DNA of 64,000 nucleotides from positions 22,586-86,585 of the IMG/VR virus record IMGVR_UViG_2681813421_000002. One strand, given 5' to 3'. Source of the stretch: a virus (taxonomy: Duplodnaviria; Heunggongvirae; Uroviricota; Caudoviricetes). Each line of letters opens with the position of its first letter. Positions within the stretch are counted from its first letter, which is position 1. Position numbers and translations under genes: made by a program. Shown here piece after piece: positions 3,237 through 37,840 of this stretch. The notes beneath the pieces were generated by a model. The model saw nothing but the letters and a program-made list of their open reading frames with translations, was not told the DNA's origin and did no database searches.

Positions 3237-4036
3237 TCGATCACTCCGTTTTGAGTCGTATCAAAATTTCTGGCAGGTATGCAGTAGTAAAGCGAACCAA
3301 CATGCTGTGTGCCGTAGCTAAAAATACGGTGCACGTACCACCAGCGGCGGGCTACGCCGTTTACCATCTCTTCATTCCATTCAAGAATTGAGCCGACGGG
3401 GACGTTATTTGCTGCAATACGCAGAATCAGAACATCATCGGTTAAGCCATCCTGCTCACCGTCTGCGTCAATCGCATGGAAAGAGTCACGCCCGTCAGGG
3501 TTATCCAGCACATAAACGATTTCAGGTTCCTGGTAAGTCAGTTCGCGTTGGTTGTTATCCAGTTCAGTGAATGACTCTTCTCCTGTTTCGTCGCTGACTA
3601 CCCCATATGTGCCAACATCTGGTCGATATAAGAGAGCCTGAAACGCGTCTGGGCTGGATTCAATAATCAGCATCCAGTCTGCGCGGATTTGGTCGTTAAA
3701 GGCTTTATGCCCGTTATAGCGTGCTTTTAACTGTGGAGTCGGTTCTCTCCCAGCCAGGGAAGATGGAAGTATGGCTATATCTGATTCGCCAGCATCCGAA
3801 GTAAGGCCACCGTTGCTATCAGCAAAATTATCATGGCTATCAGCTTTGGCGGCGGGTTGCTCTTCCAGAATGCTGAATGAATCCGAACCGGTATTGCCAT
3901 GTTCCGGCGCGCCTCCTGCATTCGCTTCAATCGGTGCTGGCGTTTCTCTCTGCGTGCTGTCATGTTCTGACTCCTTACTTGCCAGGTTTGCATCGTCAGC
4001 AAACCATTCGTCAAAACGGCCCATAAGCATCCTCAA
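3233..4036 (-). CDS. Hypothetical phage protein with acidic, low-complexity N-terminal half
   Basis: 267 aa ORF; N-terminal D/E/S/G-rich region. Confidence 0.45.
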   Translation of the reverse strand: MRMLMGRFDEWFADDANLASKESEHDSTQRETPAPIEANAGGAPEHGNTGSDSFSILEEQPAAKADSHDNFADSNGGLTSDAGESDIAILPSSLAGREPTPQLKARYNGHKAFNDQIRADWMLIIESSPDAFQALLYRPDVGTYGVVSDETGEESFTELDNNQRELTYQEPEIVYVLDNPDGRDSFHAIDADGEQDGLTDDVLILRIAANNVPVGSILEWNEEMVNGVARRWWYVHRIFSYGTQHVGSLYYCIPARNFDTTQNGVIE

Positions 4037-4186
4037 AGGTCGATCTGTCAGGTATCGAAAGGAAGATTTTCGGGAGATTGTGATTTTGGATGAAGGAGGG
4101 GGAATTCATAAAATGCACTTGCGCACAGTGCAACAGTGCGCTATAGTTATGGCATTCGGTAATCATCACGGAGGATCAAATGACTA

Positions 4187-4489
4187 ATGACCAAAAAAAT
4201 TAACATAAAGGATTTCAGGGATGCGTGGCTTGATGATTTTTTTGAATTTTCAACACCACATAGAAAGATACCTCCTGATATTCATATGACATTGTCACGG
4301 AAGTTGGACATTATCAATGCCGCAACTACCTGTAAGGATTTAAGATCACCACCAGGTAATCGGTATGAGGAACTGTCAGGGAAGCTAAATGGCTATTCAT
4401 CAGTAAGGGTGAATAAGCAATATAGGTTAATTTTTAAGTGGGTTAACGGAAAGGCCGAGGACTTGTATCTCGACCCTCACAAATACTAA
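4187..4489 (+). CDS. higB: HigB toxin (plasmid-maintenance killer family, Vibrio/Rts1 type)
   Basis: 100 aa; motifs RKL.I..AA....DLR.PPGNR.E.L.G.L.G..S.RVNKQYRLIF.WV.G...YLDPHKY match HigB-type RelE-fold toxins. Confidence 0.8.
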   Translation: MTKKINIKDFRDAWLDDFFEFSTPHRKIPPDIHMTLSRKLDIINAATTCKDLRSPPGNRYEELSGKLNGYSSVRVNKQYRLIFKWVNGKAEDLYLDPHKY

Positions 4490-4559
4490 AACAGATACCC
4501 GGTTACGGACCGGGTTCTGACCAGAGTCCACTTAATACGCACGCTAGTAAGGGCAAAAA

Positions 4560-4898
4560 ATGAAACAGGCAACCAGAAAACCGACGACCGTAGGTGATAT
4601 CCTGCTGTACGAATACCTGGAGCCGTTAGAGCTGAAGATCAACGAGTTAGCAGAAATACTTCATGTTCATCGTAACACCGTAAGTGCTCTTGTTAATAAT
4701 AATCGTAAGCTAACGATGGATATGGCATATCGCCTGGCAAAAGCATTCGATACTTCTGTAGATTTTTGGATTAATCTCCAGACCGCAGTAGACCTGTGGG
4801 AAGTCGAAAATGACATGCGCGTTCAGGAAGAGTTAAGTCGTATCAATACTGCTGAAAAATTTATTTCTCAGCGGAACCTGAATAAAAAAGCAGCCTGA
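4560..4898 (+). CDS. higA: HigA antitoxin (XRE-type HTH)
   Basis: 112 aa; VGDILLYEYLEPLEL...HVHRNTVSALVNN HTH region, toxin-first gene order characteristic of higBA. Confidence 0.8.
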   Translation: MKQATRKPTTVGDILLYEYLEPLELKINELAEILHVHRNTVSALVNNNRKLTMDMAYRLAKAFDTSVDFWINLQTAVDLWEVENDMRVQEELSRINTAEKFISQRNLNKKAA

Positions 4899-4918
4899 TA
4901 TAGTAAAACACATACAAA

Positions 4919-4948
4919 AAGCCCACTTAACAAGTGGGCTTTCCTTTG
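4919..4948 (+). terminator. Rho-independent terminator after higA
   Basis: Stem AAGCCCACTT/AAGTGGGCTT with 3-nt loop followed by a T-rich tract. Confidence 0.5.
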
Positions 4949-4954
4949 GAATTA

Positions 4955-5314
4955 ATGAACATTAAAACTATCCGTACAGAACAAGATTATGAGGCCGCAC
5001 TGCGTGCGGTAGAACCGATGTTCGATAACGAACCGGAAACGAACACCCCGGAAGGTAATTTCTTGGAGGTTATGTGTCTTCTCATTGAGGAGTACGAGAA
5101 AAAACATTACCCAATTGAGCCGCCATCACCTATTGAAGCCATTAAATCCCGTATGGAATAGCAAGGGTTGACCGTGAAGGATCTGGAACCGGCGATTGGT
5201 AAGTCAAATCGTGTTTACGAAGTGCTAAATGGGACACGAAATTTAACGTTACCTATGATTCGTCGTTTACATTCCCAGTTTGGCATTCCTCTTGAAAGCC
5301 TAGTTGGTGTTTAA
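4955..5314 (+). pseudogene. HigA-family (COG5499-like) antitoxin gene interrupted by in-frame TAG at 5159-5161
   Basis: Upstream part MNIKTIRTEQDYEAALRAVEPMFD...KHYPIEPPSPIEAIKSRME, then TAG, then in the same frame QGLTVKDLEPAIGKSNRVYEVLNGTRNLTLPMIRRLHSQFGIPLESLVGV; the two halves together resemble E. coli K-12 HigA (YgjM)-type antitoxins. Confidence 0.55.
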
Positions 5315-5374
5315 GTTTGGCAGTCTGGAGGGCCGATTTTACATAAAATCAAGGTTTAAATATTTGGTGATTAT

Positions 5375-6115
5375 ATGAGCACTGATTCATCAATAGAAAA
5401 GGAAAATGAAAAATCATCCGCCCAAAATCTGATAGAAGATGCTGTAAAAGATAAGTTGTTTAATAAGGTTTTTGCCTACATTTTTATTTCATTTTTAATT
5501 TCTAACTGGCGAGATATATTTATATTGTTGAAGTCAAAAGATGATGTTATGTATACATTATCTATGGTGTTTGTTGGGGAAAAGATTCCATTATTTGGGA
5601 ATGTTTTTGTACCCTCATTCGTAGCTCATTTTGTCTTGCCTTTTATTTATGGTGTTGTGGCTTCAATATTAGCCCCAATGTTAACTTTACTAATTTCTAT
5701 GGTGACTGGCACAATATACGCTAAATTGAGAGAGATAGATAAAATTGAAGACAAAAAAGAACAAGTAAGAAAAATTAACAGAGACATTAATGATCTTACT
5801 AAGAAACGGAAAGACGTTGAAGAGCGTCTTGAAAAAGAAAAAGAAGAACATGAATCATTAAAAAGAAAGGTAGAAGAAGTTAGGGAACAGATTGAATGTG
5901 TGGATAGCGATATCCGTCATGTTATTAAATTATATAGAGAGAAAGGTGAGAGCTTAAATTCGTTGGATGATTTTTATGAATTTTTTACTGCCGTGAAAAA
6001 CTCATCTTTTCGTTCGGGTGATACAAATGACAGGGAGACACTTGAGGAGATTCTCTCAAAGCTTTCTGATTCACTTGAAAAAATTAAATGCGATGCTAAT
6101 AAAAAGGTGGGATAA
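5375..6115 (+). CDS. Membrane protein with long C-terminal charged coiled-coil (unknown function; AT-rich gene)
   Basis: 246 aa; hydrophobic segments (FAYIFISFLISNW; FVPSFVAHFVLPFIYGVVASILAPMLTLLISMVTGTIY) followed by K/E-rich heptad-like region; visibly AT-rich versus flanks. Confidence 0.6.
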   Translation: MSTDSSIEKENEKSSAQNLIEDAVKDKLFNKVFAYIFISFLISNWRDIFILLKSKDDVMYTLSMVFVGEKIPLFGNVFVPSFVAHFVLPFIYGVVASILAPMLTLLISMVTGTIYAKLREIDKIEDKKEQVRKINRDINDLTKKRKDVEERLEKEKEEHESLKRKVEEVREQIECVDSDIRHVIKLYREKGESLNSLDDFYEFFTAVKNSSFRSGDTNDRETLEEILSKLSDSLEKIKCDANKKVG

Positions 6116-6126
6116 ACCCACCTTTG

Positions 6127-7317
6127 TTAATTTTTTATGTACTCCATGAACATTTTTTCAGCTTGTGCTGGTGGTGTTCCAGCCATGACAAGCGCATCAA
6201 TGAACGCCTGCTTCTTCAGTGCGAACTGATCGGCAAGGCGTTGCTGAAGTTCCTTATTTTTCTGTTTCTCACGTTGCAAGGCCGCTTCTTTTGCAGCCGC
6301 CCGTTTTTTCTGTGCGTCTGACAACTTTCTGGCCCTGGTCAATTGGTCACGTAGCTTGTCGATATTGCCGTTGTCCTTTGCCAGTTTTGTACTTAAAGCT
6401 GCCTGGCGCTTCTGATAGAGCCTCCATTCGCGTTTGGCGGCTTCAACGTTTGTTTTACTGCTTCGATTGCGATTAAACTCCTTCTCGTCTTCTTTTGAGA
6501 AGTGTTTGGTTGTACGGCGGCGATCGTCACCAAATGCAATTTGCGTTGCAGCCTTTTGTAGCGCACGAGCAATACTCATTTGCCAACTGGCGGACTGTAA
6601 CCGCGTCATTGAGTGGATCACGTGTTTACAGGCGACGCCTTGCAGCTTCGGGTTGCGAACTTTTGGATAGGCGTATTCTTTTGGCGGGGCCAGGGCAAAG
6701 TTACCCGCAGTAGCGATGTAACGATACCAGTATTGATGACGACCACAGTCACAATCGAAAGACACTCGCCCGGCGCACAGTGATTTAGTGATTTTGAGAG
6801 CTGATTTATCGTCTTCTGCGATGTCATCGACCATCTGATCCCATTCTTCAAAGCGTATCCGGACGATATGGTGCTGGTGGACGGATATATCCGATGCTTC
6901 TACGCGGATATTAATCACGTTGTGGCGAAGAGATACGGGGGTAGCTCTTTTGATACCAGATCCGTCATCCACGGCGTTATTTGCACGCTTAATATCGATT
7001 GCCTGGCTGGATGCCACCAGCTGGGCGTATGTGATGCCAGCCGTCTTGCTGTCATATTTTTCGCGTGTTTTACTCCGTAGCTTTTCGAAACCTTTCAGGT
7101 CGTCTCGCGTGAAGAACGTGCCGCCTTTTTTCTTCCCTAACTTGAGAATATCTTCGGCGGATTTGTTCCTCAGTCCACCTGGCGTCAGCGTCCGGTGAGC
7201 TTGTCGGCGCTTACGGGTTTGTTCTTTCCTGATAATCTCGAATATACGCGTGAAGTCCTTAGAGGACAGACCGTCAGTGATATAGCGCCCGTCCTGGTTT
7301 TTCAGGAAATCAGGCAT
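6127..7317 (-). CDS. Hypothetical protein with SWIM-like zinc-finger motif and C-terminal basic coiled-coil
   Basis: 396 aa; CDCGRHQYWY...CKHVIHSM (CxC-x-C-x-H pattern), K/R/A/Q-rich C-terminus. Confidence 0.5.
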   Translation of the reverse strand: MPDFLKNQDGRYITDGLSSKDFTRIFEIIRKEQTRKRRQAHRTLTPGGLRNKSAEDILKLGKKKGGTFFTRDDLKGFEKLRSKTREKYDSKTAGITYAQLVASSQAIDIKRANNAVDDGSGIKRATPVSLRHNVINIRVEASDISVHQHHIVRIRFEEWDQMVDDIAEDDKSALKITKSLCAGRVSFDCDCGRHQYWYRYIATAGNFALAPPKEYAYPKVRNPKLQGVACKHVIHSMTRLQSASWQMSIARALQKAATQIAFGDDRRRTTKHFSKEDEKEFNRNRSSKTNVEAAKREWRLYQKRQAALSTKLAKDNGNIDKLRDQLTRARKLSDAQKKRAAAKEAALQREKQKNKELQQRLADQFALKKQAFIDALVMAGTPPAQAEKMFMEYIKN

Positions 7318-7639: not shown

Positions 7640-7822
7640 AACAAAGCCTCTCAGTCATAACCTGGTGGAAACTGTATGCAGGGTGTGAAATGCGAGAAAC
7701 AGACAGGCCACCAGTTCAGGGGGATGTGGTTCATAAATCCCCTCACTGGTGACAAGTGACTTTCATTAATCTTTATGCGGGGGCCAGCTTCATTTGCTGG
7801 CATTAGATTAAAAATTAAACGG

Positions 7823-7957
7823 AGTGAATGACATGGATGTTATCTTCGAATTATTAATGCTAATTGATCTGTTTATGAACGCTTCATTGACCACGCAAAT
7901 ACTGGCGTCAATATTTTTGTTACTCTTCTACCTGGTATTGAGGGAGTTAACAAAGCT
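7823..7957 (+). CDS. Small hydrophobic peptide (44 aa), possible membrane-active small protein
   Basis: ATG preceded by GGAG at about 8 nt; MDVIFELLMLIDLFMNASLTTQILASIFLLLFYLVLRELTKLLM; not in the supplied ORF track (below its size cut-off). Confidence 0.25.
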
Positions 7958-7967
7958 ACTAATGTGA

Positions 7968-8621
7968 TCAAAGTATCACGGTATCTTCATCAACTTCTTT
8001 CCCAGCCAGTGACTTTGGCTGGGAGGTGCCTGCTTTAACTTTTTCATGCCCAATAATGGACAGGAACGAAGCGAGTATGCCTGTTTTTTGCTCTTTCTCG
8101 ACTGTACCGATCATCTGCTCTACGTAATCCGCACTGGCAACGTTGTGGTATACGGTCGCGTAGCAACACAGGACCATCAGAATATGTTCCGGCCTGATAT
8201 CCTGCCAGTTCACCCGGTAGACTTCTTCTCCGTTACCGTTGTATTCGGTGTCAACGATGGAGTCAGGGATTTCGAAAGCACCTTTGTTATTTTGCGGCAG
8301 GGATAATAGCTTCTGGAGTTTTAACTCTCTGTATCTTTCCATCCCGACGATGATTGCTGCTCTGCCATCGGCATGACGGGTCTTGAGAGTCACCTGGCTT
8401 GCTCCGGTGCCAGCGGAGATCGTTGGCGTTATTTCGTCTACCAGTACCTTAAATTTGCTTTTCCGCAGGGCTGCTATAGCTGGAGGAATTTTTTGCTTTT
8501 GCTCCAATGCTGACGCGGGAAGGGGTTTTACTTCGTTAATAATGAGAGCACCGTCTTTCAGTATTGCAGTGAGCATTTGAGGCTTGCTGGTGGTCAGGCT
8601 GAATATTGCGATCTTTTCCAT
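7968..8621 (-). CDS. Hypothetical protein
   Basis: ATG at 8619-8621 preceded by GGAGG; the longer track ORF (to 8663) would start on a GTG inside an upstream terminator hairpin. Confidence 0.5.
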   Translation of the reverse strand: MEKIAIFSLTTSKPQMLTAILKDGALIINEVKPLPASALEQKQKIPPAIAALRKSKFKVLVDEITPTISAGTGASQVTLKTRHADGRAAIIVGMERYRELKLQKLLSLPQNNKGAFEIPDSIVDTEYNGNGEEVYRVNWQDIRPEHILMVLCCYATVYHNVASADYVEQMIGTVEKEQKTGILASFLSIIGHEKVKAGTSQPKSLAGKEVDEDTVIL

Positions 8622-21258: not shown

Positions 21259-22661
21259 TCACTATTACCAAAGAACGCCTGCTGACAATCCAGCAGTGGC
21301 GCGAAACATACGGACCTGGTAGCAACGTTGTACTGCCAGCAGAAGAAGCGGAAGAACTGGCACGAATTGCTCTGGCATCGCTGGAAGCAAAACCAGTTGC
21401 TTATATTTTCAAACATCCGGCCGGGAAATTATTCTGGGCTTTAACGGATGAAAGCAATAAAGAGCAAGCGGACGTTATTCCTGTTTATGCTGCCGCGCCT
21501 GCGTCGGTTGTGCCGGATAATGCATCAGAGCCTCTTGCTTATGCTTACAAAGAGCTTACGCCTGAGATTATGCGCAACCATTTAGCTGTATTCGAGCGAT
21601 ATGGAATAGCCCCAAACGATAGCTCTACCACAATTCAGGCACTGCGAATCGCGCTGGATGGTATAGAGCGGAGCGACGCCATGCTTCAGTCCGGAAACTT
21701 TCGGGAAAACAAGAATTCGTCAACCAATAATTTTCGGGAAATCGCGGAAACGTCAACCAACTATCCGGTAATTCCTAGTGAGCTGTTGTCCGCAATCCTG
21801 AAGGTTGCCAAGATTCGTGCCGATTTCGATGATTTTGACGGTGACAGGCGAGGTATCGATGATTGTCTGGATGAGGCTGAGCAAGAGCTTATCGTTACCA
21901 TTAACAAATATGCCAGTCAGTTGGCAGCAGAACCGATAGCGACTAATGACGTTCGAGAGCAAACAGCCGTTCCGCCAGTTCCGGTAATGCAGGCTGATGT
22001 CGCGCAGGCAATTGAAAAACTCAAACGGAAATTAGTGGAATGCAATCGCTATAACTACTGTGCAGATGCAGTTAAAGGCGTAGAGGATGCCTGCCGTGCT
22101 GTTAGCTATAGCCAAGCCGACAATCAGCCAGCATCTGGCAACCAGGCTGCCGAATCCAATCGCGGTAATGAGTGGACCGGCAATCCTGATATTGATAACG
22201 CCATCATCATGCTCGATCGCATAGATACGCTGGAAAGTTGCGATGATGACCGTATTGAGGCTGTTAAGGCTGTTTTGCGTAGACTGGCTGGCAACTATCC
22301 GGATATTCCGGATAGTTCGGTGCCAGCGCCAGGAAAGGGCGTCACCGGTGAACGTATCCGCATTAAGCCGCATGTTTATCGCGAACTGGTTAACCGTCTC
22401 CACGATACAGCGATCAAGTGTGCTGGCACCCAGCAATTACGAGAAAGAATTAGCCGTGTTTTGGGCGACGTTATTACACCAGATCATCATAAACAAGCCG
22501 AGAAAAGTGACCTGGAAAGGTGTCACCTTGAGGCGGCATTAAACATTAAGCCGGGGCATACGCTTGGCATTATTGATGCACTATTGGTTCATAAGATGGC
22601 CAGGGCTTTATTGCCGCTGGTGGCTGAAAAGCATGAGGTGGACCATGCCAACGAAAGCTGA
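21255..22661 (+). CDS. Hypothetical protein with internal tandem repeat and C-terminal motif shared with 13113-13724
   Basis: 468 aa; repeated FRENK/FREIAE segment; YRELVNRLHD...GTQQLRER. Confidence 0.5.
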   Translation: MITITKERLLTIQQWRETYGPGSNVVLPAEEAEELARIALASLEAKPVAYIFKHPAGKLFWALTDESNKEQADVIPVYAAAPASVVPDNASEPLAYAYKELTPEIMRNHLAVFERYGIAPNDSSTTIQALRIALDGIERSDAMLQSGNFRENKNSSTNNFREIAETSTNYPVIPSELLSAILKVAKIRADFDDFDGDRRGIDDCLDEAEQELIVTINKYASQLAAEPIATNDVREQTAVPPVPVMQADVAQAIEKLKRKLVECNRYNYCADAVKGVEDACRAVSYSQADNQPASGNQAAESNRGNEWTGNPDIDNAIIMLDRIDTLESCDDDRIEAVKAVLRRLAGNYPDIPDSSVPAPGKGVTGERIRIKPHVYRELVNRLHDTAIKCAGTQQLRERISRVLGDVITPDHHKQAEKSDLERCHLEAALNIKPGHTLGIIDALLVHKMARALLPLVAEKHEVDHANES

Positions 22662-35733: not shown

Positions 35734-35809
35734 TGGTGGCCCCTACCGGACTTGAACCGGTGACCGTGCGATTATGAGTCGCCAGCTCTAACCACTGAGC
35801 TAAAGGGCC
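35734..35809 (-). tRNA. tRNA with CAU anticodon, Ile2 (lysidine) type
   Basis: 76 nt with encoded CCA; near-identical in acceptor, D and anticodon arms to E. coli ileX-type tRNA as I recall it. Confidence 0.75.
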
Positions 35810-35836
35810 GGATTACTGCCAATTTTGCTTACGCTT

Positions 35837-36664
35837 TTATTTCACCGGAACAAACGGAACAGCGGCATTACTGGTCATATACTGCGGTAATGTACCGTTC
35901 CATTTGTTGATCGCTTCCAACTCCATAACACCGGGGTTCTGGCGCAGAGCTTCACCACGTAAACGAATGGCATCAGCTTCGGCCTGGGCTTTTGTGCGAA
36001 TAGCATCAGCCTGTCCGGCAGCTTCCGCGCGCAGCATGTTGGCCTCTGCTTCACGTTGTTTGACCTCTTGCTCGCGTTGCAGGGTTTTTTGGTTTGCCGT
36101 AACTTTGGCGTTAATACTGTCAATAACTGTTGGCGGATATTCTGGCTTACCTACATAAGAGAGGCTCATCACCTGAATGCCGATTGGCGTCATTTCTTCC
36201 TGAATGTCTTTAAGGGCTGCATCAAGCAATTCAGATTTGCCACCGTCGATAAATTTGTCGGTGGTCATTTTGCTGGCTAACCGGTTCAGAGCATCTGCAA
36301 CCTTCTGGCGTAGATCGGTATCAGTAATATCATCTACACCTTTGCGATAGGTCTGAAATACCGTTGTGACTTTTGCTGGATCAACCTTGTAGGCTACGCC
36401 GATGTGGTAACCAATGGTTGTTCCGTCGCTCATCTGGAAGCTGAACGGCTCATCGTATGTCTTCATTTGCTTAAAGGTCGGGAAGATATAAACTTCAGTA
36501 TTCAAGCCTGTCCAGTAGCGACCAACACCAACTACTTCACCGATACCTTTATCATCCCCCAGCTTATTTACTTTGATCCCTACGTTACCTGGCTCTACCC
36601 GATCGCATCCGGTCAGACATAAAGAACCCAAAATAATCGCTGCACTAATCAACGTTTTTTTCAT
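35837..36664 (-). CDS. plp: Prohibitin-like SPFH/band-7 lipoprotein (Plp)
   Basis: 275 aa; lipoprotein signal LISAAIILGSLCLTGC, SPFH-like core and Ala/Glu-rich coiled-coil tail. Confidence 0.75.
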   Translation of the reverse strand: MKKTLISAAIILGSLCLTGCDRVEPGNVGIKVNKLGDDKGIGEVVGVGRYWTGLNTEVYIFPTFKQMKTYDEPFSFQMSDGTTIGYHIGVAYKVDPAKVTTVFQTYRKGVDDITDTDLRQKVADALNRLASKMTTDKFIDGGKSELLDAALKDIQEEMTPIGIQVMSLSYVGKPEYPPTVIDSINAKVTANQKTLQREQEVKQREAEANMLRAEAAGQADAIRTKAQAEADAIRLRGEALRQNPGVMELEAINKWNGTLPQYMTSNAAVPFVPVK

Positions 36665-36881
36665 TAATTAATTTCCTGGTTTTTTCACGAAAAAAGACTA
36701 CTGCGAAAGCCGGGTAAATGAGCGCGAGAAGGACTCCCAACAATACAAGTATTGTGCTGTTAGATGAGATCATATTTGGCAAAAGCCAAACATACAGAAC
36801 CAGTGACACAATCAAACAGAGGACGGCATAAATATATAACCGCACCCATAGCGTTCGACATTTGTTCGGATTGTTCTGCAT
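36645..36881 (-). CDS. upl: Small membrane protein upstream of plp (Upl-like)
   Basis: 78 aa with two hydrophobic helices; overlaps plp start. Confidence 0.5.
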   Translation of the reverse strand: MQNNPNKCRTLWVRLYIYAVLCLIVSLVLYVWLLPNMISSNSTILVLLGVLLALIYPAFAVVFFREKTRKLINEKNVD

Positions 36882-37144
36882 CCTCTCACTCCATTATTTA
36901 ACGAATAAAAAAGCTGCGGTGCCGGGTACCTCCCGGTGTCCTTTGGCTGGTTATCCACCGTGGACGGGGAAACAAGGAGAAATGAATGGACTGATATAAC
37001 CATTTCCCCGCGTGCGCTTAGCCGCATTCACCGCAATGGTAAGAGCACTTGGCTGGCTGGGCGGCGATGACGCCTGTACGCATTTGGTGATCCGGTTCTG
37101 CTTCCGGCATTCGCTTAATTAGCCAAATACTCTTAACGTTGCAC

Positions 37145-37231
37145 TGGCGGAGAGTAATGGAATCGAACCATCATCGCTTGCGCAATGGGACGGTTTTCAA
37201 GACCGCTTGAGCACCATGCTCCCTACTCTCC
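37145..37231 (-). tRNA. Type II tRNA with long variable arm, anticodon UGA (Ser-like)
   Basis: 87 nt; acceptor GGAGAGT/ACTCTCC, anticodon stem GCGGT/ACCGT with loop CUUGAAA, T-arm GATGG-TTCGATT-CCATT, G73 and CCA. Confidence 0.5.
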
Positions 37232-37365
37232 CGTTATTGTGGCGACCGGTGCTGATCTCCGGCTTGCGGTTATTTCAGACTCTCACGGGCGTTTAATTGC
37301 CCCGCCGAACAGCTCTTTTCCGCAATAGCTGCAATGTCTTTCGCGCATCAGCCTGCGCATTCACC

Positions 37366-37457
37366 ACAATGTTGAGAACACTGGTTGTCACGCTGCAACG
37401 CAACATTTATTCATAGATTGGGATATGACCCCGTTACGCCAGTGTTCTCAACGTTGT
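37366..37457. repeat. 19-bp inverted repeat (18/19 match) separated by 54 bp
   Basis: ACAATGTTGAGAACACTGG ... CCAGTGTTCTCAACGTTGT in the tRNA-cluster intergenic region. Confidence 0.55.
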
Positions 37458-37603
37458 AGTGCCGGTTACGGTTCCGGCCAGGCCTCTTCCTCAACGGGGT
37501 GTTCTCCATACGGACTACCGTTTATTGGTCGTTCCTGCGGTTTATGTTGTGAAGCCAGATGCTTATCTTCTGGTTGCTTCAAAGAGCTGCACTTCATCAC
37601 AAC

Positions 37604-37677
37604 GGTAAGGGTACTTCGTAGGGATTCGAACCCTCTGCCAAGCACGGCGATCTCCGACGTCGCAAAATACCCTTACC
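37604..37677 (-). other. tRNA-like element with T-arm motif but non-canonical secondary structure
   Basis: Contains AGGGTTCGAATCCCT and a 10-bp terminal pairing (GGTAAGGGTA/TACCCTTACC) but I could not fit a standard cloverleaf; directly abuts tRNA-Thr. Confidence 0.25.
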
Positions 37678-37685
37678 TGTTGTGT

Positions 37686-37761
37686 TGGTGCCGGTTAACG
37701 GACTCGAACCGCTGACATCCTGCTTACAAGGCAGGCGCTCTACCAACTGAGCTAAACCGGC
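37686..37761 (-). tRNA. tRNA-Thr (anticodon UGU)
   Basis: 76 nt; GCCGGTT acceptor, GCTCAGTTGGTAGAGC D-arm, loop CUUGUAA, T-arm GGTTCGAGTCC, CCA. Confidence 0.8.
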
Positions 37762-37763
37762 AT

Positions 37764-37840
37764 TGGCGATGGTGGGTGGATTCGAACCACCGACCGACAG
37801 CTTAGAAGGCTGCTGCTCTATCCTACTGAGCTACACCATC
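37764..37840 (-). tRNA. tRNA-Arg (anticodon UCU)
   Basis: 77 nt; loop CUUCUAA, T-arm GGTGGTTCGAATCCACC, CCA end. Confidence 0.75.

Follow-up and report, generated by a model that had tools for sequence, protein, structure and literature searches.

A HigA-family antitoxin gene with an in-frame amber codon in a D6-like phage-plasmid is very probably the relic of a toxin-antitoxin module that lost its toxin

The stretch of DNA analysed here (the window, 64,000 nucleotides, positions 22,586 to 86,585 of IMG/VR record IMGVR_UViG_2681813421_000002) is a D6-like (P1-family) phage-plasmid. The locus under study is flanked by homologues of the P1 tail genes 7 and 25, and it matches phage D6 as well as 109 PLSDB plasmids of Escherichia, Salmonella and Shigella. 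The features of the locus are as follows.

4088-4950, + strand: putative replacement cassette with promoter region, PF05015 toxin, TIGR02607 antitoxin and terminator; bounds approximate, from alignment with plasmid pGF4-B
4187-4489, + strand: intact HigB-like toxin of the RelE family, belonging to the neighbouring module and not cognate (PF05015, E = 4e-35)
4560-4898, + strand: intact HigA antitoxin of the neighbouring module (TIGR02607, E = 8e-30)
4916-4944, no strand assigned: GC-rich hairpin, terminator-like on both strands, closing the neighbouring module (terminator scan)
4955-5314, + strand: former higA frame (YgjM-type HigA antitoxin), now a presumed pseudogene (translation, homology and the annotation of pGF60-C)
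4955-5161, + strand: residual ORF with a 68-aa product, predicted to comprise two N-terminal helices and most of HTH helix 1
5141-5299, + strand: Xre-type HTH_3 DNA-binding domain, codons 63-115 (Pfam HTH_3; model helices 74-81, 84-91 and 99-109)
5159-5161, + strand: amber codon 69, CAG (Gln) to TAG through C>T at 5159 (alignments with intact alleles)

The former higA frame starts with the ATG at 4955-4957 and is closed by the TAA at 5312-5314, comprising 120 codons (119 plus the stop). Its sole internal stop is the TAG at codon 69, and the in-frame amber that the original prediction had placed at 5159-5161 within a HigA-family gene was confirmed by translation and homology. In the ORF listing the frame appears as two pieces: one of 68 aa counted from the ATG, or 75 aa when an upstream GTG is taken as the start, and one of 48 aa initiated at a TTG. 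The residual ORF has the lineage-specific changes P5T, M29T, D35N, F37L and F65S, and the HTH_3 coding sequence from codon 69 onwards is no longer translated. An internal restart at the TTG (5168) appears implausible: AAGGG abuts the TTG, and the 48-aa product would be devoid of HTH helix 1.

Translation of the frame with codon 69 as Gln gives a read-through protein of 119 aa, residues 6-112 of which align with HigA of E. coli K-12 and Shigella (5ifg_B and 5ycl_A; phmmer E = 6e-9). Residues 63-115 match Pfam HTH_3 with 26.1 bits against a cutoff of 23, and the former higA frame is also matched by PHROG 1373 (E = 3e-41). A homologue (P0001) that is 90% identical to the read-through protein was modelled with AlphaFold2 from the 35-sequence alignment, and a mean pLDDT of 92 was obtained. 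The model consists of two long N-terminal helices (9-23 and 32-51) and a five-helix HTH domain (59-70, 74-81, 84-91, 99-109 and 113-117). When it was searched against the PDB with Foldseek, the best five matches were full-length E. coli or Shigella HigA chains, four of them from HigBA complexes. In E. coli HigA, two helices wrap HigB and the HTH lies at the C-terminus (PMC7984235). Judged from these comparisons, both sides of the TAG belong to one protein family, HigA of the YgjM type. The claim of antitoxin-like HTH sequence on either side of the TAG agrees with the alignment over residues 6-112 and with the HTH_3 match at 63-115, and the possibility that the two halves come from unrelated families does not apply, both being of the same family. 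In the model, the TAG comes at the end of helix 59-70, the first of the HTH domain; the 68-aa product would keep the presumed toxin-binding helices 9-23 and 32-51 and lose the HTH motif.

From 4100 to 6200 the window is 100% identical to plasmid pGF60-C of E. coli GF60 (NZ_CP172188.1). On the identical sequence, the PGAP/RefSeq annotation gives a 'type II toxin-antitoxin system HigA family antitoxin' marked as a pseudogene with 'internal stop'. Window and pGF60-C are different elements: identity in the flanks is about 96%, and the second RelE/ParE-HigA pair of pGF60-C is absent from the window. Across the complete E. coli genomes in the collection, matches to the first 24 kb of the window did not exceed about 97% identity or 80% coverage. 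The further RelE/ParE-HigA pair is located between the P1 gene-26-like baseplate gene and mat, at L003:8633-9204 in pGF60-C and at L005:6272-6843 in pGF4-B; the corresponding part of the window (7640-7968) is without it, and in a related locus of the same arrangement (L007) a 44-aa ORF was called instead. The tail-gene region has several independent insertion points for toxin-antitoxin (TA) modules.

The gene pair upstream of the broken frame is complete, as originally predicted, with both toxin and antitoxin intact. Its description as unrelated stands at the level of families and fails at a broader level, where both are HigBA-named modules of the RelE-superfamily/Xre-HTH kind. No similarity was detectable between the PF05015 toxin at 4187-4489 and the PF09907 toxin of pGF4-B, and the TIGR02607 antitoxin at 4560-4898 shows a weak HTH match to the broken gene and nothing more. 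In pGF4-B, a 100-aa HigB toxin of PF09907 (WP_021551810.1; E = 3e-34), which we take to be the toxin family of E. coli K-12 HigB, ends 4 nt before the same 119-aa antitoxin gene, and 17-19 related plasmids share this pairing. A tblastn search with this toxin found no PF09907-type toxin in the window or in the rest of pGF60-C, and the gene preceding the broken frame is the TIGR02607 HigA; the predicted lack of a cognate toxin gene before the antitoxin was thereby upheld. A toxin gene of the pGF4-B type is present in 19 of 5,426 complete E. coli genomes, plasmid-borne every time, and 17 of the 19 toxin plasmids fall among the 42 plasmids with a full-length antitoxin gene. Homology between the window and pGF4-B ends near 4087 and restarts at about the antitoxin ATG (4955). 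Between the two breaks, pGF4-B has about 390 bp containing the promoter region and higB, whereas the other TA cassette takes up about 860 bp in the window. The simplest reading of these junctions is a cassette exchange that would have taken the cognate toxin together with the control region and stranded the antitoxin.

The distance from the preceding stop to the ATG at 4955 is 56 nt, most of it terminator hairpin. RNA folding puts this hairpin at 4919-4941 (-15.7 kcal/mol, z = -3.9), 14 nt before the ATG, and the longer stem of the terminator scan extends to 4944, which leaves 10 nt to this ATG. The GGAG that precedes the ATG in pGF4-B is replaced by TGGAATTA in the window. As read from the sequence, the ribosome-binding site is weak in the window and there is no room for a promoter of its own; the upstream region of pGF4-B, with its promoter and operator, has been replaced, homology ending near 4087.

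Codon 69 is CAG in phage D6 orf72, CP031917, pGF4-B, pVTB432v-3 and pCUVET19-1396.3, and TAG in the window. A Gln codon (CAG) at this position is found in D6 and about 40 E. coli plasmids, and Gln69 is invariant in the alignment of 35 homologues (72-90% identity). The comparison with intact homologues, which had been proposed as a check, gave CAG at codon 69 in D6 orf72, CP031917 and others, and the alignments identify the amber as a lineage-specific C>T transition at 5159, that is, a CAG>TAG nonsense mutation. The nearest intact allele encodes WP_021551809.1 and is 96.3% identical; no intact (Q69) copy closer to the exact allele background of the window was found. Relative to this allele, the window has five missense changes, one nonsense change (Q69*) and eight synonymous changes. 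Within the 35 homologues D35 is invariant and P5, F37 and F65 are conserved at 90% or more, and four of the five missense changes (P5T, D35N, F37L and F65S) fall at these invariant or at least 90%-conserved columns. On the 3′ side of the TAG, comparison with intact alleles found no missense and about five synonymous changes. The stop is probably recent because there is no missense change 3′ of it; the alternative is that the changes are too few to reveal neutral decay in the C-terminal half. In the N-terminal half, the changes private to the window against four intact alleles are five missense and three synonymous, which gives a rough dN/dS of about 0.4 against about 0.06 between intact alleles; the latter is itself a rough estimate from the 3 missense and 16 synonymous changes that separate D6 from pGF4-B, and with such small numbers the comparison indicates a tendency only. 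These data suggest that constraint on the window allele is relaxed.

A different form of the broken gene prevails among the relatives. Only about the first 183 nt of the gene are kept in 51 of 93 E. coli plasmids and in 73 of 109 PLSDB plasmids. This remnant encodes a 66-aa product, found on at least 1000 contigs, and is the commonest state of the gene in D6-like plasmids (e.g. L004:3356-3550 in NZ_CP027309.1). The 3′ half was removed in this majority lineage by recombination that brought in a different allele of the downstream phrog_8191 gene. The 66-aa remnant represents a second route of decay, independent of the amber. Copies paired with a toxin are full-length in 17 of 17 cases and orphan copies are broken in 52 of 76, a contrast that goes back to only two underlying events and is suggestive, not statistical. 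As about 24 orphan copies in other plasmids remain full-length, loss of the toxin does not force rapid decay.

Downstream of the broken frame, a gene on the + strand (5375-6115) encodes a 246-aa protein whose N-terminal half is predicted to span the membrane and whose C-terminal half to form a coiled coil. Its sole match is phrog_8191 (function unknown), and it is 40% identical to D6 orf73. Another allele is found in plasmids such as CP027309; some plasmids lack the gene, and it seems to be a variable accessory element of the same hotspot. A hidden toxin or a PD-lambda-2 C gene was rejected here, since Pfam, NCBIfam and PADLOC gave coiled-coil noise and phrog_8191 was the only match, and an obligate partner was ruled out by the absence of the gene from some plasmids with the TAG allele. 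It is followed on the - strand (6127-7317) by a P1 gene-25-like tail protein, in which a stretch rich in Cys and His, CDCGRHQYWYRY...CKHVIH, resembles, as read from the sequence, a zinc finger of the SWIM type.

Phage D6 carries the same locus (orf72; MF356679; PMC6799933), with 94% nucleotide identity to the gene and the same gene order, namely a RelE-family toxin, a HigA, a second HigA and the phrog_8191 gene between the gene-7-like and gene-25-like tail genes. D6 orf72 is intact: codon 69 is CAG, and none of the five missense changes is present.

The antitoxin has the same architecture as HigA of the E. coli K-12 HigB-HigA system (YgjN-YgjM; PDB 5IFG, 6KML and 6JQ4; 5YCL for Shigella), with two toxin-wrapping helices at the N-terminus followed by an Xre-type HTH. 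Identity to E. coli K-12 HigA is 31-32% over the full length, and the protein is shorter (119 aa versus 138 aa). As in E. coli K-12 HigBA, the partner in the relatives is an upstream PF09907 HigB, in toxin-first order. Unlike that system, the locus in the window has neither toxin nor upstream control region, its frame is stopped by a nonsense codon ahead of the HTH motif, and it resides on a phage-plasmid and not on the chromosome. Homology to the HigA family was thus found in sequence and fold, whereas an adjacent cognate PF09907 toxin, an intact frame and an own control region were not.

PADLOC also revealed a relationship to the anti-phage defence system PD-lambda-2 (Vassallo et al. 2022). 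The pGF4-B toxin is a full-length match to PD-Lambda-2_A (E = 1e-41), and of the 402 profile positions of PD-Lambda-2_B the antitoxin covers the first 119 (E = 4e-42). The B protein of PD-lambda-2 has an ImmA/IrrE peptidase domain at its C-terminus, and the system needs a third gene, the P4 antitoxin-like C (PMC9519451). There, B is toxic and A rescues, which is not the classical HigBA logic. Neither PD-lambda-2 A, the peptidase domain nor C was found in the window, where the downstream gene has no PD-Lambda-2_C match; a PD-lambda-2 system at this locus is ruled out, only the HigA-like N-terminal part of B being matched. The HigB/HigA pair of the D6-like type (pGF4-B, L005:3195-3860) is nevertheless a close sequence relative of PD-lambda-2 A and of the N-terminal part of B, and this similarity suggests that PD-lambda-2 may have arisen from, or given rise to, a plain TA module of the D6 type.

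Antitoxins without a toxin are also found among chromosomal ccdA-like anti-addiction genes and among the phage orphans directed against DarTG1 (bioRxiv 10.1101/2024.07.11.602962). The broken gene resembles these orphan antitoxins in being on a mobile element that competes with relatives carrying the full module. The known functional orphans are intact and expressed, whereas the copy in the window is truncated, mutated at conserved residues and placed behind a terminator.

Taken together, we conclude that the frame at 4955-5314 is very probably a pseudogene, the antitoxin relic of a HigB(PF09907)-HigA(YgjM-type) type II TA module in a D6-like (P1-family) phage-plasmid. The reading as a decaying orphan antitoxin, one of the two offered originally, fits the HigA family of the gene, the lack of a cognate toxin, the lineage-specific CAG>TAG change and the missense changes at conserved positions. 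Established are the homology, the junctions, the nonsense change with its occurrence in each independent assembly examined, and the lack of a toxin and of a suppressor tRNA in the sequences searched; how the events succeeded one another, and that expression and function were lost, we infer as follows. The ancestor would have had higB-higA between the P1 gene-7-like and gene-25-like genes, an arrangement retained today by pGF4-B and some 17 further E. coli plasmids. Recombination would then have swapped the promoter/operator and toxin for the PF05015/TIGR02607/terminator cassette, with the right junction at the start codon of the antitoxin. The stranded antitoxin would have been left without toxin, operator or room for a promoter, with a weakened ribosome-binding site and a terminator upstream, and selection on it would have lapsed. 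The lineage of the window may subsequently have gained the missense changes at conserved residues and the CAG>TAG change at codon 69, removing the whole HTH DNA-binding motif, and a separate recombination in the majority lineage would have removed everything past about nt 183.

The fragments could alternatively have a use of their own. Two independent events left N-terminal products of 66 and 68 aa that retain the toxin-binding helices, and such products might neutralise, without binding DNA, the PF09907 HigB of rival, incompatible D6-like plasmids, as an anti-addiction function, or that of HigB-based host defences such as PD-lambda-2-like systems. The 66-aa form is present on at least 1000 contigs, and rival plasmids of the same family do carry the toxin (19 E. 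coli genomes). Both model helices (9-23 and 32-51) are predicted upstream of the TAG, in line with the two helices around HigB and the C-terminal HTH of E. coli HigA (PMC7984235), and in V. cholerae the N-terminal segment of HigA2 alone neutralises HigB2 (PMC5416850). The matches of toxin and antitoxin to PD-Lambda-2_A and to the N-terminal part of PD-Lambda-2_B point in the same direction. However, four of the five missense changes in the fragment (D35N, P5T, F37L and F65S) are at invariant or nearly invariant residues, which is the opposite of purifying selection on toxin binding; the ATG has a weak SD, a terminator hairpin 14 nt ahead of it and no room for a promoter; and two events are too few for convergence, as a deletion endpoint must fall somewhere. 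We therefore regard this explanation as unlikely. That the orphan HigA copies found in most D6-like phage-plasmids, the 66-aa and 68-aa fragments included, might act in trans against a rival HigB during plasmid displacement, or against PD-lambda-2-like host defences upon infection as a phage, is quite unlikely too. If it were true, the amber allele would be a 'toxin sponge' free of DNA binding and not junk, and if the fragments did neutralise HigB they would be a natural minimal anti-addiction or anti-defence peptide.

The other alternative offered in the original prediction was a functional gene that depends on amber suppression or on programmed UAG read-through for full-length HigA. In its favour, the frame after the TAG stays open, is HigA-like and has no missense changes. 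In E. coli, UAG is read through at a low level by near-cognate tRNA-Gln, which inserts Gln, and Gln would be the ancestral residue here. A trace of full-length protein may arise in this way, and nothing points to its use. The window has four tRNAs according to ARAGORN, namely Met(cat), Ser(tga), Thr(tgt) and Arg(tct), and the 34 kb of pGF60-C outside the homologous span of the window yielded none. With a CUA anticodon in neither of the two, a suppressor tRNA was rejected. The four tRNA genes form a cluster at 35734-37840 on the - strand. The published D6-like plasmid pYU39_89 reportedly carries Asn, Thr, Ser and Met tRNAs, and since this set differs from that of the window, the tRNA set varies among relatives. 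An alternative genetic code was likewise rejected, as TAG terminates 3 of the 38 long ORFs of the window and the element lives in E. coli and Salmonella. TAG at codon 69 is limited to one allele, all other homologues having Gln, which is invariant in the 35 homologues, and an Rfam scan of 3900-6300 gave sub-threshold, terminator-like matches only, with no Rfam family or special structure at the TAG site. The glutaminyl-tRNA synthetase gene (glnS) carried by D6-like plasmids, a backbone feature already described (PMC6799933), might seem to favour suppression and is a coincidence, nothing more: it is present in 117 PLSDB plasmids, including ones with an intact antitoxin gene (e.g. NZ_CP135715.1), and is thus general in D6-like plasmids, those with CAG included, and not linked to the TAG. 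The copy in pGF60-C (L017:1742-3403), outside the window, is full-length, and its product closely resembles E. coli GlnRS. A gene dependent on suppression is thus very improbable, and this half of the original prediction was not borne out.

The TAG itself is well documented. The exact 68-aa product is recorded on 28 contigs of public assemblies, and all ten loci fetched from different samples (Logan, NCBI and ENA) have TAG; in these the gene is identical to that of the window, except for three 3′-terminal differences in a subgroup with another downstream context. Loci with the TAG allele include ones that have the downstream 246-aa gene, ones that lack it and ones with an IS insertion; the allele therefore has been inherited through several rearrangements. 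A public protein collection does hold the exact Q69 revertant as an 'intact' 119-aa protein (P0125) from two ENA metagenome contigs (L018:268-627 and L019:145-504), but the DNA of both has TAG at codon 69 and the protein must stem from a translation in which TAG was taken for Gln. With TAG in 13 independent assemblies (the ten loci, the two ENA contigs and pGF60-C) and CAG in none on this allele background, no sense codon was seen in any independent assembly, and a sequencing or assembly error in a truly intact gene can be dismissed. Phantom intact proteins of this kind, made from short metagenomic contigs by reading TAG as Gln, are a database hazard and could mislead pseudogene checks.

As a discovery this ordinary broken gene matters little: orphan antitoxins with an inactivating nonsense mutation are common, and RefSeq already flags the identical sequence as a pseudogene. 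The locus nonetheless illustrates, in a clean and datable way, how TA cassettes are exchanged at a fixed hotspot within the tail-gene region of a phage-plasmid, where one module appears to have displaced the toxin of another and the stranded antitoxin would have decayed by at least two independent routes.
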